Assembly (NCBI GenBank): GCA_035527895.1
Contig: DATKZQ010000199.1
Span: forward strand, 944 to 64,943
Direction: 5' to 3'
DNA: 64,000 nt
From: Desulfatiglandales bacterium
Lineage (GTDB): Bacteria > Desulfobacterota > DSM-4660 > Desulfatiglandales > B25-G16
The translations under genes and the position numbers were made by a program. This document shows, one piece after another, positions 2,821-20,849 of the stretch; the first letter of the stretch is position 1, and every line of letters starts with the position of its first letter. The notes below the pieces were generated by a model. That model had not been told where the DNA came from and did not search any database. It saw only the letters and a program-made list of their open reading frames with translations.

Positions 2821-3528
2821 CTATGTTTCCGATTCGGGATCGAACACATTCCATCCAAGGTATTTGCTTACAGTATCATATGTATAATCGAGTGACCCCA
2901 CTTCTGATAGCCCCTTACGCATGCAGTCAGACATGATGTGATGAAGAAAGAAATCGAGGCCATTTCCATCATGCTCAGAGAATTGAGTTTGTTTGTAAGG
3001 GCTTGACCATGTTTTAGAACCTTTAAGAGAATAAAACCCAACAAATCTCTTTGAATCCTCAAACAGTGATAAATCAGGATTCATAGGATCAACAACCAAG
3101 ACAAAATACCCGGAAGCCATACCGTCGGCTCCAAACATTCCATGTCGTTTAGATTCAACGTCTATAAGGGCATTAAAGTGTTTACTAAGCCGTTTCAAAT
3201 CATATTGGCTCTTGCACTCAACTACTTCAGATACGGACTCGCAGCAAACAATAACTGATGAATCTTCATTTACAGCCAGCCGAGGGAAGGTATTTTTATC
3301 ATAAACAAGGATATCTATTTGAGGGCTTATTTCATTTTGATTATTTGCTATTTGCCCAGTACCAACTGCAAAAGTTGAGGGCATATAATCTGTTAGTGTA
3401 CGACGTATGACATGCTCTATTGACGTCCCTTTGATGACAGAATTGTCTGAACCAACTCTTGCACGATCAGTCTGTGCAACCAAAGAATCACACAATCTTT
3501 TCAGATGTTCAGTCCAGAATCGATCCAT
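2821..3528 (-). CDS. DUF6602-like PD-(D/E)xK (restriction-endonuclease fold) protein
   Basis: The pattern KGTSIEHVIRRTLTDYMP...GQI...SPQIDILVYD...VVECKS resembles the G-x-E...S-x-Q-x-D...E-x-K layout I recall for DUF6602. Confidence 0.55.
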   Translation of the reverse strand: MDRFWTEHLKRLCDSLVAQTDRARVGSDNSVIKGTSIEHVIRRTLTDYMPSTFAVGTGQIANNQNEISPQIDILVYDKNTFPRLAVNEDSSVIVCCESVSEVVECKSQYDLKRLSKHFNALIDVESKRHGMFGADGMASGYFVLVVDPMNPDLSLFEDSKRFVGFYSLKGSKTWSSPYKQTQFSEHDGNGLDFFLHHIMSDCMRKGLSEVGSLDYTYDTVSKYLGWNVFDPESET

Positions 3529-3564
3529 ATCAATTATCTCGTCTAATCTGCTAAAAGTCTTCGC

Positions 3565-3621
3565 ACATAACGCAGAAATAACCCGCCGCTGTAAGCGGTC
3601 GGGTTGAGTGGGTGGTTAGAG
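3565..3621 (-). mobile_element. attC site
   Basis: ACATAAC (3565-3571) ... GTTAGAG (3615-3621). Arms AACCCGCCGC / GCGGTCGGGTT carry one unpaired T. The site lies between the start of 2821..3528 and the stop of 3632..3952. Confidence 0.7.
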
Positions 3622-3631
3622 AAATTACCTT

Positions 3632-3952
3632 TTAATTTGGAGATTTAAAGATGAATCCAATAATCATTATTATTGTTGCAACGATAGCCATAATTGCTGC
3701 TATCCATGCTGCTTTTTTTGCCGAACGCGCATCATCTCGCGCTGATAAAGCAATAAAATTAGCTTCTCGGGCAACTCTGATGCTTTCTGATTCTCGGTCT
3801 TCTTGCCGAGATAAAACATCTTCAGATTTGGAGGACTCCAATTGACGAAGCCATTCTTGGGCGTGTGCCCGTTTAGTCTTGTTGCTCCAAAGATTGGCGT
3901 TGAGATGCTCACGAACTTTTTCTTCCCCAAGCTCTTCACATTTTTGGAACAT
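3632..3952 (-). CDS. Small tail-anchored membrane protein (106 aa)
   Basis: Charged helical N-terminal part followed by a C-terminal hydrophobic helix AAWIAAIMAIVATIIMIIGFIF. Single-ORF cassette. Confidence 0.5.
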   Translation of the reverse strand: MFQKCEELGEEKVREHLNANLWSNKTKRAHAQEWLRQLESSKSEDVLSRQEDRESESIRVAREANFIALSARDDARSAKKAAWIAAIMAIVATIIMIIGFIFKSPN

Positions 3953-3983
3953 CTCATCTTAAGATATAGTCATAATCTTTTAC

Positions 3984-4054
3984 CCCTAACGCTGAGTTGA
4001 GACGCGGGAAACGCGCCAGCGTTTTCCCGTCGATACTCAAACGATTTGTTATAG
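3984..4054 (-). mobile_element. attC site
   Basis: CCCTAAC (3984-3990) ... GTTATAG (4048-4054), directly abutting the stop at 4055. Arms are GAGTTGAGACGCGGGAAACGC / GCGTTTTCCCGTCGATACTCAAAC. Confidence 0.75.
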
Positions 4055-5116
4055 TTAAAGTTTTTCTGGGCAAACCAGCTCGCCATTAACATCCAATATC
4101 TCATGTAAAACCAATCCAAAATAATTAACGAATCTTTTCAAAATAATATCGATTAAATGATCGAATTGGGATTCCTTATCAACGATAAAGGAATACTGTA
4201 AATTATCAGTTTGAACTGGGTATCCGTACAACGCACCTCTCGGATCTTTCTCCCTTGAATAAAGGATGGAATTACGAGTGTTTAAAATAGTGGTTGTCAA
4301 AGTCATATTTTTGAACTGCAAGCATTTAGTCCAAATGGTTTGTAGGGCTTCTATTTGCTTTGTTATTACTTGAGCAAGATGAGTATATTTGATAATTCGA
4401 GACGAACCGATTATATCGGGCTCCTTATTTTTAGCATGCTCTGTTATGTTATTAACAGATCCCTCAAGACAAAATAGAAACTCGCAATGGCCATTTCTAT
4501 ATATTGAGATTTTATGACCGTCACCTTCCTCCAAATTTTTTGTTTTAATGTTTGTTATTCCATTTTCATCAGGTCGAGTATCATATGCATTTAGTTGGGG
4601 GTTCCAGAAGCCATCACCTGGTAGATGAATACTGTTTAGAGTCTCTATTATGGCATCATCCAAGGGATGTATAGAGTCGTTATCAACGCGTAATGGTGTT
4701 AAGCTTGCCACAACCCAAATTTGAGATTTCGAAAAAGAAACCCAGGAATCATAAATCTTTTCTAGATACTGGGAATTATCAATTGGTTTGAATGAAAGAA
4801 CACCGCGTTCAAGTTGTTCAGAAACCCATTTTTCATGTTCTTCTTTAAGTTGATGCAGTTTTGAAGAGGGCCATGAGTCAGGTAATTTGTCTATTTCGGA
4901 ATGGTGGTTTGGACAAAGTAACATCAGGTTGGAATAGTCATCTCTTTTAGATAACAGCAGTGCGTCATTTCCTCTGGGGCCTTCTCTAGTGCGGCTAACA
5001 ATATGGGCAATTTCTCCGATGGTTTCGACCGAACCATCAGGAGATAGTTCAATCTTACAAATCGCGCACCTGTTAGCAGAACGTCCCCACAATAATTTAA
5101 TATCTTTAATGCGCAT
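4055..5116 (-). CDS. HNH endonuclease-domain protein with a large uncharacterised C-terminal domain
   Basis: CAICK...GEIAHIVSRTREGPRG...YSNLMLLCPNHHSEIDK is a clear HNH motif. The stop abuts the attC at 3984-4054. Confidence 0.75.
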   Translation of the reverse strand: MRIKDIKLLWGRSANRCAICKIELSPDGSVETIGEIAHIVSRTREGPRGNDALLLSKRDDYSNLMLLCPNHHSEIDKLPDSWPSSKLHQLKEEHEKWVSEQLERGVLSFKPIDNSQYLEKIYDSWVSFSKSQIWVVASLTPLRVDNDSIHPLDDAIIETLNSIHLPGDGFWNPQLNAYDTRPDENGITNIKTKNLEEGDGHKISIYRNGHCEFLFCLEGSVNNITEHAKNKEPDIIGSSRIIKYTHLAQVITKQIEALQTIWTKCLQFKNMTLTTTILNTRNSILYSREKDPRGALYGYPVQTDNLQYSFIVDKESQFDHLIDIILKRFVNYFGLVLHEILDVNGELVCPEKL

Positions 5117-5132
5117 GTGGAATAATTCCTTA

Positions 5133-5192
5133 ATATAACGAAAAACTCAGCCGCGCTGTTTCTTTGGCGTCGGCTGAAGTGGATGGTTAGGA
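5133..5192 (-). mobile_element. attC site
   Basis: ATATAAC (5133-5139) ... GTTAGGA (5186-5192). The TAA stop of 5187..5663 lies inside the GTTAGGA box. Arms are CTCAGCCGCGC / GCGTCGGCTGAAG. Confidence 0.7.
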
Positions 5193-5747: not shown

Positions 5748-7166
5748 CTATCCACAATTTGCTCTCACCTCCATGGCAAGGCGTGCTGCTGCGACTGTTG
5801 CCGGTACGTAATCGCCTCCGGCACCTCTGGCAACCTCCTTAACAACCTGAAGCTCTTTCGCCTCGCTTTCAAACTCCCAGTTCAGATGCACGCGAGAATT
5901 ATTGCGTTCCCACCAGACTTCAGAAGGTGTGAACATAAGAAGGATATCTATCCTCGGCCGTAAGAGATCAACAGCGTAACCCAGGTATTGCAGTGCGCCT
6001 TCCAGGTCCTCCAAACGCCGAATTAGCGAGTCATAGTCCGTTTGAGGGTCAGGACCGCGGAACAGTTCTTCATCGAGTTCCTGTAAGAATATATCCACTA
6101 CGGACGGCTCTTTTCTCAAGATCGGCTCCAAGTAGCCCCAAGGAGCACACGTGTAATGGTTCGGATAGATCGAGACATTCCCGGAACGCCGCTGAACGAC
6201 CACCCTGTCCTCCACATTACTATTATCCTTGGGAGGAAAGGTGATTGCCAAAACCGTAACCAATGGTCGCTTGCAATTCAAGAAGTTAAGCCTGTCGAAT
6301 TCTACCTCACCGTTTGAGAGCCAATCCTCTAGCAGATCCAGGTACGCCATCTCACAACAGCCAAAACAGTCCCTAAAAGGCCCTTCGCTGACCTCAATAC
6401 GGGGCGTTTGGTCGTCTGATGGTGTGAGTAAATCAGCCAGATTGGTCACGAAGAAAGTCGGTGCAAAACTTGCGGTGCGGAATCGCGCGATATAATCACC
6501 ACTTGCAATAGCTCTCACATCATCGAGCTTCTGCAGATTCTCTGTCGAGTGTTTAATAATGCCATCATCGAACTCTTTACATTTCTCTTTTTCTCCGATC
6601 GCTTTCAAATCGAGGATAAGCGTACTCCTTGCTGGTACCACGAAAAGAGGCCATTTATCATACGGTATGTGCCGCTTGTCCAAGGTGCCCCGGGCAGACT
6701 GCGTCAAATCATGGAAGAAGCCAGGAACATCAAGGTCATTTCTTGCTGATGGACCGTCCCACACTAGAGACGCTATATGAGCCGGGAATGGGAAAACCTT
6801 TCCGCTGTCCGCTGTGCTCCAATGAGACCATTCAACCCTTTCGGAGTGAGAACGTACGACTACCTCGGCGATAACCGCCTCCTGATCGAATCTACAACGA
6901 AGTTCGGTTGCCAAATTATTCAGTTTATTAATCTCGGAGACACACCCCTTTGGATCAGACCATTTTTCACCTGACAAGTCCATGTGCACCTCTATAATCA
7001 CAGAATCTTCGGGCTTGCCTTTGTAATACCCCTGGCAGTTGATGACCGTGTACTCGTCGATTCCCATTTGATTGGGGGCAAGTTGAATATCCTTAAGATT
7101 GATATCTCGGCCACTCATGGCCTTCGCCCCGACGAAGAAACGCACCGAAATCAAAATCTTACTCAT
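5748..7166 (-). CDS. Hypothetical protein (472 aa), no recognisable family
   Basis: Long uninterrupted ORF filling one cassette (attC 5680-5724 downstream, 7219-7346 upstream). I recognised no catalytic motif with confidence. Confidence 0.6.
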   Translation of the reverse strand: MSKILISVRFFVGAKAMSGRDINLKDIQLAPNQMGIDEYTVINCQGYYKGKPEDSVIIEVHMDLSGEKWSDPKGCVSEINKLNNLATELRCRFDQEAVIAEVVVRSHSERVEWSHWSTADSGKVFPFPAHIASLVWDGPSARNDLDVPGFFHDLTQSARGTLDKRHIPYDKWPLFVVPARSTLILDLKAIGEKEKCKEFDDGIIKHSTENLQKLDDVRAIASGDYIARFRTASFAPTFFVTNLADLLTPSDDQTPRIEVSEGPFRDCFGCCEMAYLDLLEDWLSNGEVEFDRLNFLNCKRPLVTVLAITFPPKDNSNVEDRVVVQRRSGNVSIYPNHYTCAPWGYLEPILRKEPSVVDIFLQELDEELFRGPDPQTDYDSLIRRLEDLEGALQYLGYAVDLLRPRIDILLMFTPSEVWWERNNSRVHLNWEFESEAKELQVVKEVARGAGGDYVPATVAAARLAMEVRANCG

Positions 7167-7218: not shown

Positions 7219-7346
7219 GGCTAACGCCCACCATCACCAGTGGGCAGGGTTAATAGAGCGCTGTAAAATTGCAATCAAACAGAGTATTCGATAAGAGCTA
7301 TTAACCGCCGCGACCCTGCCCATCTGCGTGAATGGTGTTGTTATGC
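7219..7346 (-). mobile_element. attC site (long, 128 bp)
   Basis: GGCTAAC (7219-7225) ... GTTATGC (7340-7346). The stop of 7341..7886 lies inside the GTTATGC box. Long arms CACCATCACCAGTGGGCAGGGTTAATAGAGC / GCTATTAACCGCCGCGACCCTGCCCATCTGCGTGAATGGTG pair with bulges. Confidence 0.75.
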
Positions 7347-7886
7347 ATTGTCAAATAGTAGGGTTCCTGCCACTGCGAGTTCACACAACTTTGTTTGTAT
7401 TAATTCTACTAGCTGAATTGACAAAGCGAGGCTTTCAATTTCATGCCGCGTTATGACAATAAACTGGCGGCCTTCTGCTAATGCCGCGTTAATGACATCA
7501 TGTGCCGCTGTTCTATCAGCAGGATTCCCTGTTATGCCATTAGCAGCAACTAATATTCCAAAAGGCTGGGCTCTTCTTCGTAATTTTGAATCAAACCAAC
7601 CGACTTCCTCACTCCCTAAAGGTCGTGACCAATTCTTACATTCAGCCAGAATTATGTTTTGAAGAAAATACAAGCCATTGTGATGGCGTCTATTCCAGAA
7701 AGCAACATCAATTTCTTCGGATAAAAACTGATTTAGTGTGTTTCTTTTTGTAACTGTGATTCCAGGCACCTTCCCGAAAATGTAACAAATAAGATCTTCG
7801 AGAGCTCTGCCTTTTTCAGTAGTTGTTTGGGCATTGTCACCTGCAGCAAGAAATTGTTGAATTCGCTGTTGGGATATGAGAGCCAT
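7341..7886 (-). CDS. Mrr-like restriction endonuclease-domain protein (PD-(D/E)xK)
   Basis: KGRALEDLICYIFGKVPG...EEIDVAFWN...ILAECKNW matches the Mrr_cat-type layout G-x-x-x-E...D...E-x-K. Its start overlaps the stop of the upstream ORF (TAATG at 7884-7888). Confidence 0.7.
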   Translation of the reverse strand: MALISQQRIQQFLAAGDNAQTTTEKGRALEDLICYIFGKVPGITVTKRNTLNQFLSEEIDVAFWNRRHHNGLYFLQNIILAECKNWSRPLGSEEVGWFDSKLRRRAQPFGILVAANGITGNPADRTAAHDVINAALAEGRQFIVITRHEIESLALSIQLVELIQTKLCELAVAGTLLFDNA

Positions 7887-8779
7887 TATATCTCTCCCCC
7901 ATGTGCAATTATGTTCCTGCGTGTCCTTATTATGCCAGAAAAACTTTTTTCTTGGAGTTGTTCAATGAACTCTTCTAGTTGGAAAAAAATGATATTGAAC
8001 TGTTGTGCTGCAGTTTGAGCTTCAAATGATGGCAGTCCTTCCAAATATAGTACCAAGGCAGATCTTGAATTACTTTTATTCATGTAGCGGAGTAATTGAT
8101 CTGTAACCTTTTTAACCTGTGCAGCACTCTTAATGCTCCTTTTAATTTCAATTAAAATTGGGTTGCCAAATATTGAACTAAGATCGTCAGACCAAATAGC
8201 AAAATCGGCTCCAAGATCTGGTCTGTTTGATTGCTTGATTATTGAGATACCGCTCTCTTTCAGTATGTCACCCACAAAATTTTCGAGTTCGTACCCAGCG
8301 ATTTTAGGATCTAAGGATTTTAGCCTGTTTCTTAACTCAATTACTCCGAATCCGGCAGGTTTACCAACATGAGGAGGTTTCTTTAACTGTCGCTTTTTTG
8401 TTCTTTTGATCGGTGCGGCAAGCAACTGATCAACTGTAAATCCAAGAGCTTCGATGTTGTCTGCATCAATTTTTAGATAAAGAAAGCCTGCTAAATCGGA
8501 TGGGATTTTAAATTTCGGGGGGGCCAAGATAATTATCTGTTTTTTTTGGGCTACGGCCAGCCCTAATTCAAAGAAAATATTTCCATTTGGCAGATCGTCG
8601 TCGAAGACCGCGATAAAGAGATCTGCTTGTGAAATTAGTTTTGATATTTTTTCACTAATGCTTTCACCAGAAAATGGAATTTCGGATGGGTGAATATACT
8701 CCAGGCCTTTCTCGCTGAGTATCCTCTTTATTTTTAAAAGGTTGACTCCTGCTGGTGCTGAAATAAAGCAAGAAAGCAT
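7886..8779 (-). CDS. Fusion protein: N-terminal nucleoside 2-deoxyribosyltransferase-like/TIR-like Rossmannoid domain plus C-terminal Mrr-like PD-(D/E)xK nuclease domain
   Basis: The N-terminal part CFISAPAG...QADLFIAVFDDDLPNGNIFFELGLAVAQKKQIIIL resembles the NDT/TIR-like core. The C-terminal part YELENFVGDILKESG...GADFAIW...ILIEIKRS is an Mrr-type D...E-x-K motif. Confidence 0.55.
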   Translation of the reverse strand: MLSCFISAPAGVNLLKIKRILSEKGLEYIHPSEIPFSGESISEKISKLISQADLFIAVFDDDLPNGNIFFELGLAVAQKKQIIILAPPKFKIPSDLAGFLYLKIDADNIEALGFTVDQLLAAPIKRTKKRQLKKPPHVGKPAGFGVIELRNRLKSLDPKIAGYELENFVGDILKESGISIIKQSNRPDLGADFAIWSDDLSSIFGNPILIEIKRSIKSAAQVKKVTDQLLRYMNKSNSRSALVLYLEGLPSFEAQTAAQQFNIIFFQLEEFIEQLQEKSFSGIIRTRRNIIAHGGEI

Positions 8780-8807
8780 TTTAGTACTCCTTTATTATTT
8801 TGCGATG

Positions 8808-9503
8808 TTATGCATTCTCTTTTTTATCTGACTGATACTTCAATAAAGCATGCCTTAGATTTCTTACTTCTGCTACAAGGTAAGAGGTCTGGGTTGCAGT
8901 GGGGTCGTACTTTACGCCCCAAAAACCAAGGCTAAAATGTTCGAACTTACCTAAACCAGCTTCCAATCGGAAACTGGATACCCTCTTTAAACTCACGCCT
9001 GGTTCGGCCATATCAACTACAATATCACCAACTTGATATTGCCCTACGAGGAATTCGACCTCAAAAGATTGGCCTTTATTGATATGGGCTATTTCCAGGG
9101 TGGCAACGTTGTCCATTTTTTCTAAACTCAATTTTTTCCTATAAACGCCTAAATCTCCTATGTATCGGCCAACATATACCTTTGCATCATCGCCAAATCG
9201 AAAATACAATGTTATATTTTGAAGTTCAACGTTACCTGTATTACCAACCTTAATTCTTATCGTGCTAAGATCGGTTACTTGATTCGGACCCATAAAAACC
9301 TTTACAGGGACGCCAAAACCGGTCTCTAATTCCTCTTGGGTAGCATGAGATAATAAATTGCTTTCATTAACCAAAGACCAAATAATTTTCTTTTTCTTTT
9401 TGCTTATACGCTGAGTCAGAATTGTGAGCAAAACACCAAGCAAAAAAGTAACTCCCCAGCCTACAATTGTAATCCAGTCAGAGCTTTTTATATCAAAAGC
9501 CAT
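8808..9503 (-). CDS. Membrane-anchored protein with a beta-rich soluble domain (231 aa)
   Basis: One N-terminal TM helix (WITIVGWGVTFLLGVLLTILT) followed by KKKKK, which suggests a cytoplasmic C-terminal domain. GAGGG RBS. First gene of the three-gene unit. Confidence 0.55.
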   Translation of the reverse strand: MAFDIKSSDWITIVGWGVTFLLGVLLTILTQRISKKKKKIIWSLVNESNLLSHATQEELETGFGVPVKVFMGPNQVTDLSTIRIKVGNTGNVELQNITLYFRFGDDAKVYVGRYIGDLGVYRKKLSLEKMDNVATLEIAHINKGQSFEVEFLVGQYQVGDIVVDMAEPGVSLKRVSSFRLEAGLGKFEHFSLGFWGVKYDPTATQTSYLVAEVRNLRHALLKYQSDKKENA

Positions 9504-9975
9504 CTATACCCTCGTCATTTATGTGTTTGCATAACATTTACATATAAGGCAATTTTGCCTGATCCCAATATATCGGGATTGAACAAACAAACAGGCAAAT
9601 TTGCTTACTTTCAATATTCAACATAGTATTGTCTTTCTGATCGTAAAAAAACGATAAAATTGAAAATCTTACGGGCGCCCCGCTTTATGGCAAGAATAAC
9701 AATTTAAGCCACAAATTGTTTTGAAAATTGCGAGTCAAAAGCACACCTGGAGCCCTGTCAAAAAATCAAAAGAGTCAAACGGAGACTTGACCCTTTATCA
9801 AGCGAGAAGTAACGGGTGCGGAAAGGGAGGCGAAAACGAGGCCGAGCTGATGCGAGCGTCTGGGCCAAGCAGAAAAGGAGAACTTTTTTGGCAGGAGAGG
9901 TGTTTTTTCCCTTGACTCGCCCTTTAATGGTCGACCCCCATTTTAGATTTTTTAGGATTTTTTCAATTCTGCTAT

Positions 9976-10249: not shown

Positions 10250-10726
10250 TTATAATCCTGTTGATTTTAAAACCTCATTATAACATTTTTCTAGCAACTT
10301 TGTTTTCACTGGCAAATCAGCCTCTTCTTTACTTGCTAGAACCTCCTTCTTTTTTGTATGTATAAATTCCTCTATTATTAGATCTTCACTTTTGCCATGA
10401 TTTAAAGAGAACCAAATGATTTCATAATCAATTTTAATTTGATGCCATTTTTGAGCCACGTTAGTTGTATTCTGTATCATTTTTGACCAATTTAGGATCG
10501 GAAGTGCAATAGCCATCAACGCTGAAATGCCGGATAATAATTTCCAAACAATTTGAATTTCACTCCATATATTCCAGCTTGCTACGGTTCCAGATGCCAT
10601 AATTCCTAAAAAAATCTTGTAGGCTTTTTCCCGTTGATTATAACGTCTCGCTAGGCTCGACCAATATCTGACATTCATATCAGCATCTAACTTCGAATCC
10701 CAAATATCTTTTTTCAATGAGTTCAT
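10250..10726 (-). CDS. Two-TM SLATT-like membrane effector candidate (158 aa)
   Basis: N-terminal RYWSSLARRYNQREKAYKIF is followed by two adjacent hydrophobic helices (IFLGIMASGTVASWNIW and WKLLSGISALMAIALPIL), then a helical tail. This layout resembles SLATT/DUF4231-type proteins. Confidence 0.45.
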   Translation of the reverse strand: MNSLKKDIWDSKLDADMNVRYWSSLARRYNQREKAYKIFLGIMASGTVASWNIWSEIQIVWKLLSGISALMAIALPILNWSKMIQNTTNVAQKWHQIKIDYEIIWFSLNHGKSEDLIIEEFIHTKKKEVLASKEEADLPVKTKLLEKCYNEVLKSTGL

Positions 10727-10757
10727 TTTTGGCCTCCTAATAAAAGCTCAGGAAAAG

Positions 10758-11134
10758 GGGACGTTGGTTCCAAAACGATTTAAAGATATTTCTCTACCTC
10801 TGGCAACTCATCAGAAACGGCTAATCGATTAGCAGCAGAAGTATTTATACCAAGAAAGCATGCGACATCCGCACAAGAATAACCCATTTTTTTACCGCTG
10901 TCTGACTCATAAGAGCCCAAGGGTAAACACTGAGGGCATCTGCCCCACAAAGAGCCCTCAAACGCTCAAGAGAATCCTCCCGAGCTTTGCTGTTGCTAAA
11001 TATCTTTACTCCACCAATGCCCAGACCCATCACATGATGTAAGGCACCGGGTGCATCAAGTCTTGGCTGTCTGGACATACAAAAAGCCTCACCCCTTTAT
11101 GCCATTTATCAAGTCGTTTTGGAACCTACGTCCC
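10758..11134. repeat. 21-nt inverted repeat pair flanking the transposase remnant
   Basis: GGGACGTTGGTTCCAAAACGA (10758-10778) is the reverse complement of TCGTTTTGGAACCTACGTCCC (11114-11134) with 1 mismatch. Confidence 0.8.
10845..11078 (-). pseudogene. Truncated IS200/RAYT-type (Y1) transposase fragment
   Basis: PRLDAPGALHHVMGLGIGGVKIFSNSKAREDSLERL...VYPWALMSQ matches the N-terminal third of REP-associated/IS200-like tyrosine transposases. The frame then decays and only 77 aa remain. Confidence 0.65.
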
Positions 11135-11161
11135 GTTTCATGTTACGTGTGCTTGTGCTCC

Positions 11162-12640
11162 TTATTGTCCATTGATCGATTCCATGATTTGCTTAAAACT
11201 CTCGACACCGGCTTCAAGGTTTTCGATGATCTCTTCAGCCAGCACATCCGGATCGGGGAGGTTATCCAGGTCGGCCAGGCTTTCGTCTCTGATCCAAAAA
11301 ATGTCCAGGCTGGTTTTGTCACGGGCCATGATCTCGTCATAGGTGAATTTTCGCCATCTCGCGTTGGGGTTGTCTTCTGTCCAGGTTTCTTGGCGTTTGT
11401 GCCGGTTTTCGGGATTGTAGCAGGCAATGAAATCCTTCAGGTCGTCATAAGTCATCTGGTTCTTCTTTTTGGTAAAATGGACATTTGTTCTAAAGTCATA
11501 AAACCAAACCTCTTTTGTCCACGGGTCCTTGCTGGCAGGCTTGTTTTCGAAAAAGATCACGTTGGCCTTGACCCCCTGGGCGTAAAATATGCCGGTGGGA
11601 AGCCTGAGAATGGTGTGCAGGTCGGTATTTTGAAGGAGTTTTTGTCGAACCGTTTCACCGGCTCCCCCTTCAAAGAGCACATTGTCCGGAACCACCACGG
11701 CCGCCTGGCCGGTGGTTTTGAGCATGGTGCGAACGTGCTGTACAAAATTGAGCTGCTTGTTGGAAGTGGTGGCCCAGAAGTCCTGCCGGTTGTATCGAAG
11801 ATCCTCCTTTTCCTGTTTGCCCTCTCCATTGGTGATGGTGATACTGCTTTTTTTACCGAATGGCGGATTGGTCAGGACATAGTCGTATCGGTCACCGGTA
11901 TCGGCAATCAGGGAATCATTGGGTGAAATGGTGGATTCACCGGTAATCTCCCCGATATTATGCAGAAACATGTTCATCAATGCCAGGCGGCGGGCATTGG
12001 CTACGATCTCGTTGCCGAAAAAGGTTTGATTCTTCAAAAAGATTTTCTGTCCCTTGTCCAGGTTGTAATTGTTTATTAAAAAATCATACGCCGCCAGAAA
12101 AAAACCACCTGTGCCGCAGGCAGGGTCGGCAATGGCTTTAGAAGGTTCGGGGCAGACACATTCGACCATGGCCCTGATCAGCGATCTTGGGGTAAAATAT
12201 TGTCCGGCGCCGCTTTTGACGTCTTCGGCATTTTTTTCAAGCAGGCCCTCGTAGATATCCCCCTTGACGTCCGCTCCCATCATGACCCAGTTTTCCGCAT
12301 CGATCATGTGAATAATCTTATAAAGCTTGGCCGGGTCCTGGATCTGGTTCTGAGATTTGACAAAAATCTGGCCGATCATGCCTTTCTGTTGGCCCAGTGC
12401 CCTGAGCAGCTTGATGTAATGGGATTCGAGTTCCGCCCCTTTTAGGGTTTTCAAGCTGCCCTAATTGTATTCAGCCGGGATGCCGACATCCTTTTTGTAA
12501 ATCCTGCTGTATTCATCGGCCATCTTGAGAAACAGCAAATAGGTAAGCTGCTCTAAATAATCGCCGTAACTGACGCCGTCATCCCGCAGAGTGTGACAGA
12601 AACTCCAGACTTTTGAAACGATGTTTGCGGTATTGTTCAT
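11162..12640 (-). pseudogene. hsdM: Type I R-M methyltransferase subunit HsdM, interrupted by one in-frame TAG (12461-12463)
   Basis: Carries the NPPFG motif (LTNPPFGKKS) and the AdoMet motif DPACGTGGF. The 59-codon N-terminal part (MNNTANIVSKVWSFCHTLRDDGVSYGDYLEQLTYLLFLKMADEY...) lies in the same frame upstream of the TAG. Its ATG overlaps the upstream stop (ATGA). Confidence 0.85.
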
Positions 12641-14085
12641 TTCGTTATTTTCTCTTTTGTTGAATAATATTTTTGTCTTGAGCTTGTCGGTTTCTCAGGA
12701 ATTGTCGGCTTCAAAATACCCTGTTTCAATAAAGGCTGGAGAATTGTTGCTCGAAAATGCTCTCGATGCTTCAGTCCCAGAAAGCCCATTATTTCAGAAG
12801 TTGATTTTGGGCTTCTACAAAACTCAATAATTTTTTCGCTCTTCTCGACCTGCTCGGCAACTTGCTCGGCAACTTGCTCGGCAACTTGCTCGGTGACTTC
12901 CGGGGTAACTTGCGGGCTAAGGGGGACGATGCATTTAAAAATATCTTCCTCTATCAGTTCAGGAGTCTTGCCATCGGAATAATGCCGGCAGTATTTAAAA
13001 AGATTTCTCACCCCGGAACCAAGCTCATCCGCGCGTCCGATTTCCTTGAAAAAACTGGCCATAACCGGGTTTTTGGGAAAGGGAGAAAAATTTGCGGGAT
13101 CGATCAATCCGTGTCCGTGGGGCTTGTTGCTGTTTTCAGCAAACAACCGGTTGGTTTCAATAATAAATTTTGCCGGGTAGGGATTTAGAAATTCACGGTG
13201 GATCAGCATGTTTGCAGCCACTTCCCTGAATATATGGTCTCTCAGGCTGATCCGCTGGTCTTTTTCCAGGAAGAATTTGTCCGGCAGATGTTTGGCCACA
13301 AATGCCATCAGGCGGTCATAACTCTCAATCAGGTTGGTCCGGATGTCATCGCGATCGTCGTACCTGTCTATGTTCTCCCGCCGAAGCAGAGCATCGGTGC
13401 GATGATGGGGCAGCACGGATAAAATGGCATTATCGTCTCCTAAAAGAAGGATTGCAGCTAGTGTAAAACCTTCCTTACCGCTTTGATAGTCCCTTTGAAA
13501 AAGCTGGGCGCTTTTGAGCAACTCGATATCCGACATACTGGCCCATGGATGCCCGGGTCTTTGATTGACAGCCAGCTTCCTTGCTTTGGCGATCAGGTCC
13601 GGGCGCAGGTTCTTCAAAGACACATAAGGATATGTACGATTTTCCGAATAGCTGGTCTGCTTTCGAATGTAAAGCTCTGTGACCAGATTGGTGTTGCTGG
13701 TGATATCAAGGTCTCCATCTTCATTGCGGTCATATATTTTACCATTGCAGCGGTGAACCTGGGAGCTTTCAGGGACAAAGAGGCGGATGATCCGTTTTCC
13801 TTGAATGGCCCAATTCTCGGGCGTCAGATAAAACGGCGGATTCAGCTTCTGAGGATTATTCAGGGCGGTTACAAGCTCGTTTTTGACCTGATCCACTGCT
13901 TCGGGGTCAATGCCCGTTATCTTTCCACTGTCACTCACACCAAGGAATAAATCTCCTCCATTGCGGTTTAAAAACGCGCAAATGCTTTCGAAAACATCTT
14001 TGCCCAGCTTATTCCGGCATTCTTTAAATTCGATGGAGATGCCTTCTCCTTTACGGATCTGATTTTTTATTCCGGCTTTGTTCAT
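12637..14085 (-). CDS. AlbA_2/Schlafen-like DNA-binding domain protein with RecG-like HATPase_c_4 and a C-terminal wHTH, embedded in the R-M operon
   Basis: N-terminus GEGISIEFKE...ICAFLNRNGGDLFLGV is the AlbA_2 signature. The central part is ANMLIHREF...GSGVRNLF. Both ends overlap neighbouring genes by ATGA. Confidence 0.65.
   Translation of the reverse strand: MNKAGIKNQIRKGEGISIEFKECRNKLGKDVFESICAFLNRNGGDLFLGVSDSGKITGIDPEAVDQVKNELVTALNNPQKLNPPFYLTPENWAIQGKRIIRLFVPESSQVHRCNGKIYDRNEDGDLDITSNTNLVTELYIRKQTSYSENRTYPYVSLKNLRPDLIAKARKLAVNQRPGHPWASMSDIELLKSAQLFQRDYQSGKEGFTLAAILLLGDDNAILSVLPHHRTDALLRRENIDRYDDRDDIRTNLIESYDRLMAFVAKHLPDKFFLEKDQRISLRDHIFREVAANMLIHREFLNPYPAKFIIETNRLFAENSNKPHGHGLIDPANFSPFPKNPVMASFFKEIGRADELGSGVRNLFKYCRHYSDGKTPELIEEDIFKCIVPLSPQVTPEVTEQVAEQVAEQVAEQVEKSEKIIEFCRSPKSTSEIMGFLGLKHREHFRATILQPLLKQGILKPTIPEKPTSSRQKYYSTKEKITK
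12850..12921 (-). repeat. In-frame 12-nt tandem repeat (6 units, 4 near-perfect)
   Basis: CTGCTCGGCAAC, TTGCTCGGCAAC x2, TTGCTCGGTGAC, then two decayed units. It encodes VTEQ(VAEQ)x3V inside 12637..14085. Confidence 0.85.
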
Positions 14086-15677
14086 TCTTTCTTCATCTTC
14101 TTTGATCGCGATTTTTCCCGACCTGTCGCAAGGGCTTTTTCAGCCTTGATTCGTTCCAGCAGCTTTTCAGCCGAGTTTTCACCGAAAATCAGCTCCGGGT
14201 GCTTTTTCCGCCATTCTCTTGTCAATTCTCCCTCAAATGCCTTCTTCAATATGCTCTGCCGCAGGGCTTCTGCTTTCTTAAAGCTGTCTTCAATGGTTTG
14301 TTCAATTTTGTCGCAGACGGACAGACGGGATTCGATTTCAGAGACGATAAAATTTATTTCCATTTTTGAACATAATGGTATCGGTATATTTGAAACATCT
14401 GCAAGCGAAAGGTTGGCTCTTGCGAAATCGACCTTTTTTGAATTGTAAAATTTGTTTGCGGAAGAAGTATTTAAAAATATAGAAATAAATTCTTTTAGGT
14501 TTTGGTCCGCAAGTCTTATGAGAGATACAGCTTGATTAATGTTCGCACTTAGTTCAAGAGCATAAATTGCCGCTCTGCCGATGGAAGCCCCAACAATATT
14601 TAGCAGGATATCTCCATTTTGGAGGACCGAATTTCTTTGTTTTAAGCTAAACGCATTTTCCAAATACTTTGGATTATCTATATCGATGTAATTGTTTCTT
14701 ATGTTTTCGCTTGTTATAAATAGAACTTGGGTAGGATCAGTAACATATTTAAATCCTTGCCACTTTGGAGAGGCCCCCTTTGTAATTAAATAAGATAAGT
14801 CTCCAAGTTTACACCACTCCCACTTCCTCGGCAGCTCCGGTAATTCTTTTAATTCTGTATCCGTAAGCGGCGGCAGTTCCTTTGGTCTTTTAGGTCTAGC
14901 GGGTTTCTTCTTGCCTTCTTTGTTTGCCAGTTCGCAGGCCTTTTCCCAATCTTCCACCTGTTTTTTATAATGCTTTTCACTCTCTTTCCGAATGCGCTCC
15001 AGAAGATTTTCCGCTGGTTCCGGCGGGTTTCCCGCCTGTATCTGTCGGGTGCGCCATTCTTTGCTGAACCTGCCTTCAAAGGCATATTTCAGCACGGCCT
15101 GGCGGTATGTTTTCAACTGTCCCCGGGCTTTTTTCAGGTTTTCGATGCCGTTATCCAGTTCAGAAAAGAGTTCCTCGATTTTGGCTACGATTTGGTTTTG
15201 TTCGGGTAGGGAGGGTAAAGGGAAAGGAAGCTTTCCAAATGCGGTGCCAGATATTTCACGAAAAGTTGTGCCCGAGGCTCTTTCTTCCGCAATATATTTG
15301 GCGGCCTTCAAATAGTAATATACATATTCATTAAATACACCTTGAGCTGGCACAAGACTCTTGAAACCTTGATTCGTACTTAGTGGCTGAGAACTGATAG
15401 CCACATATCCAATAGGTGCCCTTGAAGAGAAGTGAATGCTGCCTGCTGGCATTAGCTTCGCTGAACTTTTGGCAAGACCTTGATGCGTAAGGCTCTTAGC
15501 TCCTCTGGCGATAGTTTTTTTTGTGTAACCGGTAAGGTCGGCCGGTGAAATCCAGTTAATATCATCGCCCCAGTAAGACATCTCTTTGGTTGATGGTGTT
15601 CCACCTGAAACAATGTCGCCAAGAGATTTTATTTCTACCCATTTCCAGATTTGAGGTATGTTCCAGGGCTCCTTCAT
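14082..15677 (-). CDS. hsdS: Type I R-M specificity subunit HsdS (two target-recognition domains)
   Basis: Repeated TRD/conserved-helix architecture. GDIVSGGTPST...APIGYVAI...NQGF occurs in the first half, with an analogous second half and coiled-coil spacers. Confidence 0.85.
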   Translation of the reverse strand: MKEPWNIPQIWKWVEIKSLGDIVSGGTPSTKEMSYWGDDINWISPADLTGYTKKTIARGAKSLTHQGLAKSSAKLMPAGSIHFSSRAPIGYVAISSQPLSTNQGFKSLVPAQGVFNEYVYYYLKAAKYIAEERASGTTFREISGTAFGKLPFPLPSLPEQNQIVAKIEELFSELDNGIENLKKARGQLKTYRQAVLKYAFEGRFSKEWRTRQIQAGNPPEPAENLLERIRKESEKHYKKQVEDWEKACELANKEGKKKPARPKRPKELPPLTDTELKELPELPRKWEWCKLGDLSYLITKGASPKWQGFKYVTDPTQVLFITSENIRNNYIDIDNPKYLENAFSLKQRNSVLQNGDILLNIVGASIGRAAIYALELSANINQAVSLIRLADQNLKEFISIFLNTSSANKFYNSKKVDFARANLSLADVSNIPIPLCSKMEINFIVSEIESRLSVCDKIEQTIEDSFKKAEALRQSILKKAFEGELTREWRKKHPELIFGENSAEKLLERIKAEKALATGREKSRSKKMKKE

Positions 15678-18430
15678 TACGCCGCCAATGCCTCATTCAT
15701 TTCATCAATAATCCGATCCATGTCATCGCCGAACAACTGAAGCATTTTTCCAATGCCACCCTTGCCGTCAAAGGGGGCATAATCCAGATCATCCTTTTCA
15801 ATATGCACGGAACTGATGATGTGATCCTTGACCATGCGCAACCATGTCATCTGTTCCTCGGAGAATTTCAGGGGCCCGGCCTGTTTTTCAAACACCCATT
15901 TCTGAAAGTTTCGGTTGACCGTCTGTTCAAATGAGGTCAGCGTGTCATCGATGCCGGTGATACGTCTGATCAAGGAAACCAGTGCGGTGAGTTCGTTTTT
16001 CGGGGATTTGCCGTTCACCTTTTCCACCTGTTCGTATGCCTGCCAGACCCGCGCCGGGGCAAGTCGGGGCTTGTTCTGTTTTAGGGTTTCGAGCACCGCT
16101 TTGATCATGTCATAGGTGATATCTCTGCGGTTATACGGTTGGTTGTAAAAGATGGAAAGGGCCGTGATCTCATCCTTGTGAGCTTCCATAAAGGTTTTAA
16201 AATCCTCTATGGTTTCTTCCGCCTTTACCTTGGCCTGCTGATCCCATCCGGTGTATTGCAGCTCGTCGAGGTTGATGCCGTCGATAATCTGCTCATGGGA
16301 GGTGCGGACGTTTTCGATAAATTCGTTCAATTCACCGGTAAATGTGTCTCTGGCGCGGTTGATCAATTCTTTTTGGGCATCCTGCTTTTCATCCTCATCC
16401 GGCTCCGTATCCGGTGGCAGGTTGAACTTTTCCTTCGCAGTTTCAATAATTTTATCTGGATTATACGCGTCCAGCAGTTCATGAACCAGTTTATTGATAG
16501 TCTTTCCGTCCGACAATTGCTTCAATTTATTCCGTTCATCTTCCGTGATCTGTTTTTCCAGCCGGGCCAGGCGGCCTGCCAGCGACGTATAGGTGTCTTC
16601 ATCGGTTTGCCCCATCAACACCGCCTGGAGGAGATCTTTTAGGGGAACCGATTTTTTCCGCTCAAGGGGCCGGCTGTCAGTTTTGACGGACTTGCTGACC
16701 GCCACGGCATCAACGATAACAAATCCTGTTTTGCTGGTATGAACCGAAGGGGTAACCTTTTTCAGATCGTCATATCCCAGGGTGCGGGTCCCCCTGCCTT
16801 TCATCTGCTCAAAATAGTTCCTGGATCTGACATCCCGCATGAACACCAAGCATTCCAGGGGCTTGACATCCGTACCGGTGGCGATCATGTCAACGGTTAC
16901 GGCAATCCTGGGGTAATAATCATTGCGGAAAGACGCCAGCACGTATTTGGGATCTTCGTCCGCCTTGTATGTGACTTTTTTGCAAAACGCGTTTCCCTCG
17001 GCAAATTCTTCGCGCACGATGTTGATGATATCGTCGGCATGGCTGTCGGTCTTTGCAAAAATGAGCGTTTTGGGGACTTCCCCACGCCCGGGAAACATTT
17101 CCGGCAGATTATCCCGAAAGGCTTTGATCACATTTCTGATCTGGCTTGGGTTGACCACATCCCGGTCAAGGTCGTTTCCGTTGTATATCACTTCTTCATC
17201 GAGTTGCTCCCACCGCTTTTTACGGGTCAGGCGGTCCCGTTTATCCACCCATTGCTCGGCAACCAGTTTGCTGCCGTCTTTGGTGATCCTGGTTTCAATA
17301 AGATAGGTGTCAAATCCGACATTGACCCCGTCGGCCACTGCTTCTTCATGCCGGTATTCGCTGACCACGTTTTCATTGAAAAAGCCGAATGTCCGCTTAT
17401 CCGGAGTTGCGGTCAACCCGATGTAAAAGGCGTCAAAATAATCCAGTACCTGCTTCCACAGGTTGTAGATGGAGCGGTGACATTCATCGATCACGATGAA
17501 ATCAAAAAATTCGGGCGGGACGTTTTCATTGTATTCAACTTCCCGGGGTCGTCCCAACTCCCCGTATTCATGGGGATTGGTCTGTTCCGCGGTTTCATCG
17601 AGTTCTTCCCCCTTGAGGATGGAATACATCCGCTGGATGGTACTGATGCATACCTGACTGTCCGGCGGGACATATTTCGAGTTCAGCCTCCGGACGTTAT
17701 AAAGTTCCGTGAATTTCCGGTTGTCGTCACTCGGCGTATACCCCATGAACTCCTGTTCGGCCTGCTCCCCCAGGTTTTTGGTATCCACTAGGAACAGGAC
17801 GCGTTCGGCATCCGCAAAATTGAGCAGACGATAAATAGCAGTGATGGCGGTGAAGGTTTTTCCGCTGCCGGTTGCCATCTGGATCAAGGCACGTGGTCTG
17901 TTTTCCCTGAATGATTTTTCAAGATTGGTAATTGCTCTGATCTGGCAATCCCACAGCCCTTCAACAGGCAAATTGGGCAAATGCTGCAATCGCTGCCGCA
18001 GGCTGGTTTTCTGCCTTATCCTGTCTTTTAATGTTTTCGGATGGTGAAATGAAAAGACATGCCTTGCGCGGGGTTTGGGGTCCCGCAGATCGGTATACCG
18101 TGTTAATATGCCGGTGCTTTCATAAACAAACGGGAGCGGTCGGCTGTCTGCAAACCATTTCAGTTTGCTTTGGGCATAATATTCCGCCTGCTGTTCATGA
18201 ACGCTCAGGCGGTGACCTTCCTCTTCTTTTTTGGCTTCAATCACACCGATGGGTTCACGATCAACAAACAGGACATAATCAGCAGGACCGACATCGGTCT
18301 GATATTCACGAATCGCAAGCCCCGGGCCGAGGCTCCAGTTGATTGCATTCTTGTCAACAACCACCCAGCCGCACCGTTCGAGCATTTTGTCTATGTTGTC
18401 TCTAGCTTTTTGTTCGGGTGTTCTGTTCAT
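15677..18430 (-). CDS. hsdR: Type I restriction enzyme R subunit HsdR (EcoEI/EcoAI-like C-terminus)
   Basis: N-terminal nuclease region (ADYVLF...IGVIEAKK), Walker A ATGSGKT, DEAH-like VIDECHRS, helicase C motifs. The stop overlaps the hsdS start (TAATG). Confidence 0.9.
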   Translation of the reverse strand: MNRTPEQKARDNIDKMLERCGWVVVDKNAINWSLGPGLAIREYQTDVGPADYVLFVDREPIGVIEAKKEEEGHRLSVHEQQAEYYAQSKLKWFADSRPLPFVYESTGILTRYTDLRDPKPRARHVFSFHHPKTLKDRIRQKTSLRQRLQHLPNLPVEGLWDCQIRAITNLEKSFRENRPRALIQMATGSGKTFTAITAIYRLLNFADAERVLFLVDTKNLGEQAEQEFMGYTPSDDNRKFTELYNVRRLNSKYVPPDSQVCISTIQRMYSILKGEELDETAEQTNPHEYGELGRPREVEYNENVPPEFFDFIVIDECHRSIYNLWKQVLDYFDAFYIGLTATPDKRTFGFFNENVVSEYRHEEAVADGVNVGFDTYLIETRITKDGSKLVAEQWVDKRDRLTRKKRWEQLDEEVIYNGNDLDRDVVNPSQIRNVIKAFRDNLPEMFPGRGEVPKTLIFAKTDSHADDIINIVREEFAEGNAFCKKVTYKADEDPKYVLASFRNDYYPRIAVTVDMIATGTDVKPLECLVFMRDVRSRNYFEQMKGRGTRTLGYDDLKKVTPSVHTSKTGFVIVDAVAVSKSVKTDSRPLERKKSVPLKDLLQAVLMGQTDEDTYTSLAGRLARLEKQITEDERNKLKQLSDGKTINKLVHELLDAYNPDKIIETAKEKFNLPPDTEPDEDEKQDAQKELINRARDTFTGELNEFIENVRTSHEQIIDGINLDELQYTGWDQQAKVKAEETIEDFKTFMEAHKDEITALSIFYNQPYNRRDITYDMIKAVLETLKQNKPRLAPARVWQAYEQVEKVNGKSPKNELTALVSLIRRITGIDDTLTSFEQTVNRNFQKWVFEKQAGPLKFSEEQMTWLRMVKDHIISSVHIEKDDLDYAPFDGKGGIGKMLQLFGDDMDRIIDEMNEALAA

Positions 18431-18450
18431 GTTAAGATTTTCTCATTTTC

Positions 18451-18584
18451 TCATAACGCGGAGGTGAGGGGCCGGGCGGCATTTTGAGATAAAGCTTTCC
18501 GGCCCTTACTCATGCCCCTAAAAGAAGTACATGCGTTGAAACGACACCTGAATAGCCCGGTCCCTCTCTACCGCCTTGTTGTGC
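18451..18584 (-). mobile_element. attC site (134 bp) immediately upstream of hsdR
   Basis: TCATAAC (18451-18457) ... GTTGTGC (18578-18584). Arms are GCGGAGGTGAGGGGCCGGG / CCCGGTCCCTCTCTACCGC. The right box is 9 nt from the stop of 18594..19019, and the hsdR ATG lies 20 nt beyond the left box. Confidence 0.65.
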
Positions 18585-19019: not shown

Positions 19020-19038
19020 AATTTGCTCCTATTCGTGT

Positions 19039-19092
19039 GCACAACGCAAAACTCACCAGCGGTTTACCGTCTGGTGGAGTGAATGGTTATAA
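19039..19092 (-). mobile_element. attC site
   Basis: GCACAAC (19039-19045) ... GTTATAA (19086-19092). Arms are CTCACCAGCGG / CCGTCTGGTGGAG. The ATG of 18594..19019 lies 20 nt beyond the left box. Confidence 0.65.
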
Positions 19093-19976: not shown

Positions 19977-20843
19977 TTAGACAAACCTTATCCTTGAAAC
20001 AATATCCAGGAAAAACTCCTGGGACCAGATGGACAGGGTCTCCGGATTCTTGACAAAAGGCTCCACCTCCTTGCGGGCCTGCTCTACATTGAGACTATTT
20101 ATCGCATGAATCAGCAGATCTTTAAACCGCTCCAATGTCAAAGGTGTATCTTCTTTCCAATCCCCGGTCTGTCGCATGCGTTGTTCAAGATGATAGAGGT
20201 GCAGCTCGGGATGATGGGCAGCATACCACACGAGATCATACCAGTCCCGGCCCTTAACCCTGCCTTTCCATCTTCGGCATAGAATGGCGTGCATTTTCCC
20301 CGCAAATAGGTCTGGAAGCACAAAGGCACGCACCGAAAAAGGAATGGGCTGCAAGAGGTAACGCGTCTGTGTAGCGAAACCCGATGGCGGGTCGGTATCC
20401 ACTTCCAGCTTTATCTTCAAAATCCGGCCCTTGGGAATCGCCTTAACTATCTCCTCACCTGTTTCGATAACGAGGAGTTGAGTCCGCGTATTTGCCTTGA
20501 GAAAGGCAGATTGTATAGGAGTCTGTGCTGCCTTGTCGATTTTTTCAATCTGTATATCAAAGCCAAAACCATTGATTTCCCTTTCGAGGAAGCCAGTAAA
20601 ACTCGTGATGTCAAAAGTGACTGAGGGCTCCAGTAGAGAAAAATCCATGTCTTCGGAAAATCGGTCTAATCCGTAAAGAACGCGCAAAGTGGTCCCGCCG
20701 TAGAAGGCCGCCTTTTCAAAAAGCTTGCTGCGCCAGAGTCCCAGCAGGGCTATATCTTGTAGGATTTCACGCAAGGCGTTTATGTAATCATTAAGCCCGC
20801 GGCATTCATATTTGGAAAGCATTCGGGCAATTGCTTCATGCAT
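19977..20843 (-). CDS. AbiEii/AbiGii-family nucleotidyltransferase toxin (type IV TA)
   Basis: LFEKAAFYGGTTLRVLYGLDRFSEDMDFSL is the typical AbiEii (DUF1814) N-terminal NTase motif. It lies directly downstream of an AbiEi-like gene. Confidence 0.8.
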   Translation of the reverse strand: MHEAIARMLSKYECRGLNDYINALREILQDIALLGLWRSKLFEKAAFYGGTTLRVLYGLDRFSEDMDFSLLEPSVTFDITSFTGFLEREINGFGFDIQIEKIDKAAQTPIQSAFLKANTRTQLLVIETGEEIVKAIPKGRILKIKLEVDTDPPSGFATQTRYLLQPIPFSVRAFVLPDLFAGKMHAILCRRWKGRVKGRDWYDLVWYAAHHPELHLYHLEQRMRQTGDWKEDTPLTLERFKDLLIHAINSLNVEQARKEVEPFVKNPETLSIWSQEFFLDIVSRIRFV

Positions 20844-20849
20844 GGTTGC

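Follow-up and report, generated by a model that had tools for sequence, protein, structure and literature searches.

A widespread two-gene module joining an NDT/TIR-like domain to PD-(D/E)xK proteins, carried here on a fused integron-type cassette, is a candidate anti-phage system

Short prokaryotic Argonaute (pAgo) systems include (Mrr-)TIR-APAZ partners, in which a single immune effector holds both a TIR and an Mrr-type nuclease domain and the TIR NADase is proposed to be activated once nucleic acid is recognised (PMC9097488), and defence genes are also carried as cassettes in mobile and sedentary integrons (bioRxiv 10.1101/2024.07.02.601719). Here we describe a locus with features of both, in a 64,000-nucleotide stretch (the window) of a Desulfatiglandales bacterium (assembly GCA_035527895.1, contig DATKZQ010000199.1, positions 944 to 64,943 of the forward strand). 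The locus contains three co-directional genes, a, b and c (Table 1), that a first-pass annotation took to be one integron cassette encoding a candidate three-gene defence system. The three open reading frames (ORFs) are present with the positions and lengths it gave, as are all of the peptide strings it quoted, but comparison with related loci divides the genes differently. The conserved unit is the b+c pair, found across bacterial phyla, and gene a is a cassette gene in its own right. We assign a probability of roughly 0.55 to a reading in which two cassettes have fused, b and c form the functional unit, and their products act as a DNA-triggered nuclease together with an N-glycosidase effector.

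The SPARTA-like short pAgo systems with Mrr-TIR-APAZ are the nearest precedent for the pairing of TIR-like and Mrr-type domains in b, but no Argonaute recurs near b-c and neither protein has an APAZ match; in the literature searched, every use of 'Mrr-TIR' referred to APAZ fusions in short pAgo systems. Like the PF10137-type TIR effectors of CBASS (Cap12/TIR-STING) and Pycsar (PycTIR), b passes the PF10137 cut-off and conserves the FELG glutamate, but b-c has no recurrent CD-NTase or pyrimidine cyclase and no STING or cyclic-nucleotide (cNMP) sensor, and the TIR-like domain is joined to a PD-(D/E)xK domain. The N-glycosidases of the nucleoside 2-deoxyribosyltransferase (NDT), DNPH1 and BcmB-MilB types share with b a nucleophile-type glutamate aligned in FE(L/V)G, whereas b has N-G-N-I where D-x-G-T precedes this residue in those enzymes, scores below the Pfam cut-offs, lacks a metabolic context, is fused to a nuclease fold and lies in defence islands. 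Both b and c carry an Mrr_cat-type core with D..ExK, as in Mrr and the Type IV enzymes, but there is no Mrr_N winged-helix match in either, the predicted activity is split over two polypeptides, and an N-glycosidase-type domain is attached. From Thoeris the pair differs in that c alone recurs beside b, and c has no ThsA-type SLOG or Macro domain.

Among the PADLOC candidates, the C-terminal domain of b matches the C-terminal third of PDC-S02 (1.7e-8), PDC-S02 is also weakly matched by some c homologues, and the N-terminal domain of b weakly matches PDC-S35; these are partial, domain-level matches to single-gene uncharacterised candidates. PADLOC-DB 2.0.0 (2023) holds no full-length model for b (the partial matches are to PDC-S02, PDC-S35, PycTIR and ThsB) and none that matches a or c of the window, so for that database the earlier statement that the genes fit no named defence system is upheld. 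We found no name or description of the b+c pair in the PADLOC models or in the literature searched, and the pair is apparently an unnamed and widespread new combination of known defence-type domains.

The b family is large. A word-indexed search returned about 63 clusters, and an exhaustive profile search gave 727 representatives at the 50% clustering level (E <= 1e-30), nearly all of them about 300 aa long and aligned over their full length. We gathered 112 b loci from genome and metagenome collections (loci carry L numbers below), of which 102 have room for a downstream gene; a c-like ORF lies immediately downstream in 96 of these, mostly with a -4 or -1 overlap at the junction, and no neighbour of b other than c recurs across the collected loci. 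Translational coupling of b and c had been proposed from a TAATG overlap, and the overlap is indeed present (ATAATG joins the b stop to the c start, with base 7886 shared), with junctions of the same kind elsewhere. The association also holds when approached from c: a search gave 654 matches, the top 120 all with at least 57% identity, and the distant homologues that were sampled, from Bacillus cereus, Calothrix and a metagenome-assembled genome labelled as archaeal, all follow a b-like gene of 300-310 aa that overlaps them. An overlapping b-like gene likewise precedes c in Agrobacterium and Sphingomonas plasmids, where the two genes bear no annotation beyond 'restriction endonuclease', 'hypothetical protein' or 'nucleoside 2-deoxyribosyltransferase'.

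The hosts of b-c include Planctomycetota, Actinomycetota (Streptomyces, Lentzea, Amycolatopsis and Solirubrobacterales) and Proteobacteria, with Blastochloris, Cereibacter, Pararhizobium, Rheinheimera, Gilvimarinus and Haliea among the genera, and many copies are chromosomal and outside integrons. Gene order and distribution thus point to b+c as the conserved unit, a translationally coupled two-gene module spread across bacterial phyla. Conservation of the a-b-c trio had been suggested as a check on the three-gene proposal; a does not accompany the pair elsewhere, while b and c almost always occur together. Streptomyces okerensis has two identical b-like copies near its chromosome ends (L034/L035, about 77-88 kb and 7.319-7.330 Mb), in what look like terminal inverted repeats; these match b residues 5-258 only and, with no c gene following them, are probably in decay.

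The company kept by b-c is, for the most part, that of defence genes. In the window its neighbours are a Type I restriction-modification (R-M) system, a Schlafen/AlbA_2 gene, AbiE and HNH genes; in B. cereus (L129/L130, 1-5537) the pair is directly downstream of Gabija GajA/GajB (AAA_15/OLD-TOPRIM and UvrD helicase), and on the Agrobacterium tumefaciens plasmid pAtH25_79a (L136) it is beside a DUF1837 and DEAD-helicase (Hachiman-like) pair and an NTase-HEPN gene. Cassettes adjoining close relatives of b-c encode a deaminase, a DUF4365 protein and an HNH protein. A qualitative PADLOC scan of 119 flanking ORFs, made with no control set, gave matches to MADS, PARIS AriA, Mokosh MkoA, PglW and kinase models. 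From this gene context, b+c is predicted to be a credible anti-phage defence candidate, one among many of its kind, with an unusual N-domain that might prove new in mechanism.

The assignment of b as a fusion of an NDT/TIR-like domain to an Mrr-type domain, made from the sequence at first reading, stands in Pfam, Foldseek and PDB profile searches. In Pfam, b matches CAP12-PCTIR_TIR (PF10137) at 35.5 bits (cut-off 24.7, aa 16-105) and Mrr_cat at 33.1 bits (cut-off 21, aa 160-273), and its scores against three NDT families are all under their cut-offs (PF05014, 24.2 bits versus 28.8); the scan gave no STING, SAVED or cNMP-binding domain in b. Across 30 members of the b family at E <= 1e-3, NDT was matched in 28 (sub-threshold), TIR_2 in 17 and PF10137 in 16. 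The structural model of b (pLDDT 80.5) has two domains, with residues 125-138 below 50. In Foldseek, the N-domain matches the CMP N-glycosidase BcmB, DNPH1 and NDTs about equally to the TIR domains of SARM1, TIR-1, RPP1 and SfSTING/Cap12, with E values of about 1e-5 to 1e-4 for both groups. The best PDB matches by sequence and fold are 2a0k (1.7e-6) and 4jen, 8rpt and 7o62 (about 1e-5 each); PycTIR (8jsj) was matched in the profile search and SfSTING/Cap12 (7un8) in both profile and fold searches. As the NDT and TIR matches are about equal, we regard the N-domain as a separate clade between the families, for which 'NDT/TIR-like' is an accurate label.

Conservation of individual residues was counted over 62 non-redundant b-c pairs. 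Glu71 of b is invariant in A1 and present in 58 of the 62 pairs, and Gly73 in 61; this FELG glutamate stands where NDT and DNPH1 have their nucleophile and TIR NADases their catalytic glutamate. In the nuclease-fold domain D192, W196 and D198 are each found in all 62 pairs and E211 in 55, position 213 is lysine in 48 and arginine in nine more, and in the C-terminal RRNxxxHG motif R288 is kept in 60 and H293 in 58. Four b homologues of 472-593 aa (P0046, P0240, P0285 and P0371) have N-terminal extensions of 170-300 aa ahead of the full b architecture, which suggests an extra fused domain in some lineages.

Protein c scores weakly against Mrr_cat (17.2 bits versus a cut-off of 21), most of its homologues carry PF04471, and its D60, E82 and K84 (D..ExK) are invariant in all 62 pairs. 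The model of c (pLDDT 89.4) has a helical N-terminal segment and a nuclease core, for which Foldseek ranks the restriction endonuclease EcoT38I first and the Mrr-like N-domain of RPB5 next. These observations agree with its earlier description as a second PD-(D/E)xK protein; no SLOG, Macro, SAVED, STING or cNMP-binding domain was found in c by Pfam scan, model or Foldseek. In an hhalign comparison (80.5%, E = 1.3e-5) protein c aligns with the C-terminal domain of b so that the catalytic residues coincide, and it is a distant paralogue of that domain. Mean pairwise identity is 0.31 for b and 0.48 for c, and distances between b N-domains are correlated with those between the c proteins (Spearman 0.56). 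Protein c is a small predicted nuclease that evolves much more slowly than b, and the faster change of b and the co-variation of the two fit interacting partners under an arms race.

The unit has integron-type boundaries at both ends, which were called from comparative breakpoints and from the folding of each site against 200 shuffles. The attC downstream of c folds as single-stranded DNA at -23.9 kcal/mol (z = -3.19), with none of the 200 shuffles as stable, and accompanies the cassette in L120, L121 and L040, among the b relatives at 92% and 97% identity. Downstream of c, similarity ends at the G|TT of R' (after GCGTT) in three unrelated contexts, where the next gene encodes a 472-aa protein (window), a DUF4365 protein (L120) or an unrelated 461-aa protein (L040). 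The 472-aa protein (5748-7166, minus strand) lies in the cassette just downstream of b-c, is kept with the trio only in L001-L004 and has no match in Pfam or PHROGs. At the other end, the GTTATGC box upstream of a (9535-9529) is one position off the GTTRRRY consensus, and at TGTTATGC three contexts differ on the 5' side and are alike on the 3' side: the window with L003, L040, and the integrase/attI side of L128. Both boxes, first picked out from the sequence alone, are real recombination boundaries rather than chance matches, as the comparative breakpoints fall exactly there.

The stretch upstream of this box, 9536-9796, contains an imperfect hairpin (about 9545-9605, z = -3.55), along with a terminator-like hairpin (9796-9769) and a sigma-70-like site (9693-9666) that is weak; scanning the surroundings of the unit for promoters and terminators gave matches no commoner than in shuffles. 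It may be a promoter region for a-b-c, or alternatively an ORF-less cassette or promoter-bearing leader. In L003 (compared over 3132-4178) a near-identical a-b-c array has wholly different upstream neighbours (NYN, DUF188 and Fer4), yet has in common with the window about 260 nt of non-coding DNA before the GTTATGC box, beginning at the terminator-like hairpin.

That everything between the attC and the box is a single cassette, as first described, is contradicted by the junction of a and b. In the window and in L040 gene a ends ...ATGCATAAC (8813-8807), directly followed by the b leader. In L128 an a homologue of 81% identity ends with the same ...ATGCATAAC and then a complete attC hairpin (z = -3.38); this homologue occupies the first cassette position next to a divergent 452-aa integrase (Phage_int_SAM_4 and Phage_integrase). 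In L121-L123, whose b is 92% identical, an attC ending ...CATTATGC stands before b, next comes the leader ACGAAAAAATCCAAAGGAGTACTAAAATG, and the sequence before b (...AAAGGAGTACTAAAATG) is the same as in the window; the cassette before b there is SNase-like, a label taken from reading the sequence. In L124 (b 64% identical) a strong attC hairpin (z = -7.6) is immediately upstream of b, and contigs of the 92% and 64% relatives often break about 150 nt before b. The R'' remnant directly followed by the b leader implies that the attC of cassette a has been lost save for its R'' box, and the fusion is recent, as it is not present at 92% b identity. On this comparative evidence, we interpret 7219-9535 as a pair of integron cassettes, each mobile in its own right, that became fused when an attC was lost, rather than as one three-gene system.

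Gene a itself begins MAFDIKSSDWITIVGWGVTFLLGVLLTILTQRISKKKKK..., a single hydrophobic N-terminal helix followed by KKKKK, and gave no convincing match in Pfam, PADLOC, NCBIfam, PHROGs or PDB sequences. Its family has 24 clusters with a mean column identity of 62%. Beside b it is seen in L001-L004 and L040 alone, all with b at 97% identity or more, and it is missing from b relatives at 92%, 64%, 56% and 33% identity and from at least 100 b-c loci in all; a homologues are found apart from b-c in four further contexts (L125, L127, L128 and L138), and with an attC of their own. The first-pass proposal of a three-gene system therefore does not hold, a being tied to b only in near-identical copies of the locus, and a is better regarded as an independent cassette gene of a conserved family, a hitch-hiker brought by the fusion. 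In L128 (3396-7466) the integrase is followed by the a homologue, a canonical Mrr_N and Mrr_cat enzyme and an NDT/TIR-like protein, each in its own cassette. The NDT/TIR-like gene (L128:6765-7466) was considered as a b homologue and rejected: it shares the N-domain alone, at 25% identity, and is in a separate cassette.

Table 1. Coordinates of the a-b-c locus, its parts and other features of the window
Feature	Coordinates	Strand	Description
Gene a	8808..9503	-	231 aa; one N-terminal transmembrane helix, KKKKK, beta-rich domain
Gene b	7886..8779	-	297 aa; NDT/TIR-like domain fused to Mrr-type PD-(D/E)xK domain
Gene c	7341..7886	-	181-aa stand-alone PD-(D/E)xK protein
b N-terminal domain, aa 1-122	8414..8779	-	NDT/TIR-like Rossmannoid N-glycosidase-type domain; Glu71 in NIFFELG
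b linker, aa 123-145	8345..8413	-	K/R-rich, predicted disordered; KRTKKRQLKKPPHVGKP
b C-terminal PD-(D/E)xK domain (Mrr_cat-type)	7889..8344	-	D192, E211-x-K213, C-terminal RRNxxxHG motif
AAGGAG ribosome-binding site of b	8787..8792	-	Within cassette leader kept in L121-L123 and L040
attC of cassette b-c	7219..7346	-	R'' GCATAAC 7346-7340 (holds c stop codon), R' GTTAGCC 7225-7219
Remnant R'' box GCATAAC of lost cassette-a attC	8807..8813	-	Fusion point; contains the stop codon of gene a
GTTATGC R'-type box	9529..9535	-	5' recombination boundary of cassette a; comparative breakpoint
Non-coding stretch upstream of a	9536..9796	-	Common to window and L003; alike to about 9790, then diverging
Further attC-like sites (examples)	1914-2002, about 2760-2820, 3529-3631, 3965-4051, 5117-5186, 18445-18583, about 19030-19080	-	
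Type I R-M operon	11162-18430	-	hsdR 15677-18430, hsdS 14082-15677, hsdM 11162-12454
AbiEii toxin / AbiEi antitoxin pair	19977-21500	-	Upstream end of the array, adjoining HTH-cupin gene and TRAP transporter

How b and c might work together can be outlined from these features. The two proteins would come together by way of their nuclease-fold domains, forming a hetero-oligomer able to recognise invading (phage) DNA, which c would cut; assembly on the DNA would gather the N-domains of b and switch on N-glycosidic cleavage of NAD+ or a nucleotide, shutting down the infected cell. Several points weigh against this reading. We infer defence, complex formation, NADase activity and nuclease activity alike; the lysine of the b ExK motif (K213) is replaced in 14 of the 62 pairs, so the b nuclease domain is possibly only a binding or scaffold module; and the N-domain scores as high for NDT, DNPH1 and BcmB as for TIR, so the substrate could be NAD+, a deoxynucleotide (dNMP) or a DNA base. 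The apparent enrichment of defence genes near b-c comes from the scan made with no control, hairpin slippage and an aberrant integrase event are conjectural routes of attC loss, and the b+c pair may already have a name in newer catalogues.

The ambiguity of the N-domain leaves room for restriction of a Type IV-like, modification-dependent kind, in which the NDT/DNPH1-like domain of b replaces the Mrr_N reader and recognises or excises a hypermodified pyrimidine (such as hydroxymethyl-C or hydroxymethyl-U) in phage DNA or the nucleotide pool, after which a b/c PD-(D/E)xK heteromer cleaves the DNA, with no NAD+ depletion and no abortive infection. The best N-domain matches act on (hydroxymethyl)pyrimidine nucleotides (BcmB, 4jen; DNPH1, a 5-hydroxymethyl-dUMP hydrolase; MilB-type hydrolases), NDT is the Pfam family matched by most members (28/30), both nuclease domains are of the type of Mrr, itself a modification-dependent enzyme, and a few c homologues weakly match models of methyl-directed restriction endonucleases. 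However, the Cap12/PycTIR TIR family is the sole N-domain family over its curated cut-off in the window b, whose beta-A F-I-S and DD...N-I-x-F-E-L-G resemble PF10137-type TIRs, and we know of no characterised Type IV enzyme with an NDT-like reader domain. The NDT and TIR scores are too close for decision, and overall we consider this explanation unlikely, though it is the leading alternative. A bolder form, in which b+c is a new class of immune nuclease whose NDT/DNPH1-like domain senses or destroys hypermodified phage pyrimidines and is coupled to a heteromeric Mrr-type nuclease, is a doubtful proposition; if true, it would link Type IV restriction mechanistically with DNA-glycosylase defence and with TIR-type effectors, and integron cassettes would be its means of spread.

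An addiction (toxin-antitoxin-like) module, with a toxic nuclease or NADase and a neutralising partner stabilising the cassette array or a plasmid and no phage sensing, would suit two tightly overlapping genes that are found in integron cassettes and plasmids and have PIN and AbiE cassettes nearby; long sedentary cassette arrays do hold toxin-antitoxin cassettes. Yet b and c exceed the usual size of type II toxin-antitoxin partners, neither has a DNA-binding domain of antitoxin type, catalytic residues are kept in both, and many copies are chromosomal, outside integrons and next to defence systems, all of which makes this improbable, even though toxin-antitoxin function and defence are compatible. 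The three-component system proposed at first, with membrane protein a as sensor or effector, draws on the arrangement of a-b-c on one strand at spacings of 28 nt and -1 nt, an order shared by L001-L004 and L040; the close spacing, the single strand and the lack of an attC between them make it probable that the three genes are co-transcribed, and the a homologue of L128 also adjoins Mrr-type and NDT/TIR-like genes, though in separate cassettes. We regard it as very unlikely given the absence of a from so many b-c loci, 92%-identical b relatives included, the a homologues found without b-c, the scar of a lost attC at the a/b junction, and the disparity in family size (24 clusters versus at least 727 for b). 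Least credible, and scarcely so, is Thoeris- or CBASS-like signalling, in which the TIR-like domain of b would make a nucleotide messenger that activates c. Thoeris TIR-type domains produce cyclic ADP-ribose (cADPR) isomer signals (PMC13243611), and the N-domain weakly matches the ThsB and PycTIR models, but no ligand-sensing domain is recognisable in c, b-c has no recurrent cyclase or ThsA-like neighbour, and b already has a nuclease-fold domain of its own.

The part of the window from 1 to about 21.5 kb has the look of a defence island, with every gene there in minus-strand orientation. Attachment sites are frequent here: attC-like hairpins occupy most gaps between 1 and 19 kb, each starting at, or inside, the stop codon before it (..TAAC) and closing with a GTTRRRY-like box. 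A strict regular-expression and folding scan (R''/R' complementary at 6/7 or more) recovered only two of the sites visible by eye and gave equally many matches in housekeeping DNA, and was set aside; a generic inverted-repeat finder did not detect the attC sites. The array-flanking ORFs scanned, a subset of those in the 64 kb, included no integrase, and the array is on that count CALIN-like (an attC cluster without integrase) and nuclease-rich. The integron cassette label is thus sound as regards the attC and the G|TT boundaries, and needs amending in that two cassettes are fused and no integrase was seen among the scanned ORFs. With described integron defence cassettes b-c shares a 3' attC with R''/R', G|TT breakpoints and an array of co-oriented, short, nuclease-rich cassettes; it differs in the CALIN-like array, in the two-cassette fusion and in that the pair is common outside integrons too. 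Besides the trio, the array includes two HNH nucleases (HNH_5 and HNH_2), a DUF6602 protein and several proteins without assignment. Beyond it are housekeeping genes, namely a TRAP transporter, queA, tgt and secDF.

It had also been stated that the locus has no methyltransferase, SIR2 or ATPase; this is so inside the unit, but the Type I R-M system lies 1.7 kb upstream. Between its hsdS and hsdM is a gene (12637-14085) for a 482-aa Schlafen/AlbA_2 and Fic-like_C protein. The hsdM gene is interrupted, with a 59-aa HsdM_N piece (about 12461-12640) that stops at an in-frame TAG and a 430-aa remainder that starts with TTG, and may be a pseudogene or be expressed by readthrough. Between a 158-aa ORF (10250-10726) and hsdM, 28-nt inverted repeats that are 89% complementary surround 329 nt (10754-11138), an arrangement like that of a miniature inverted-repeat transposable element or a long hairpin element. 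Further away, an AMP-binding enzyme (28390-29970, minus strand) is split into two ORFs, a 113-aa N-terminal part (29629-29970) and a 397-aa part (28390-29583), probably by a frameshift or as a pseudogene. An Rfam scan of the window gave no matches.

Should b+c protect against phage, the catalogue of defence systems would gain a compact two-gene member of about 1.4 kb with a broad phylogenetic range. The N-domain of b, placed between NDT hydrolases and TIR NADases, is a useful test case for the origin of TIR effectors from nucleotide-metabolising enzymes, and also for TIR-type triggering without a signalling partner. The locus further offers a clean natural example of cassette fusion through attC loss, by which unrelated genes become one mobile, co-expressed unit, and such fusion is a trap for the prediction of multi-gene systems through guilt by association.

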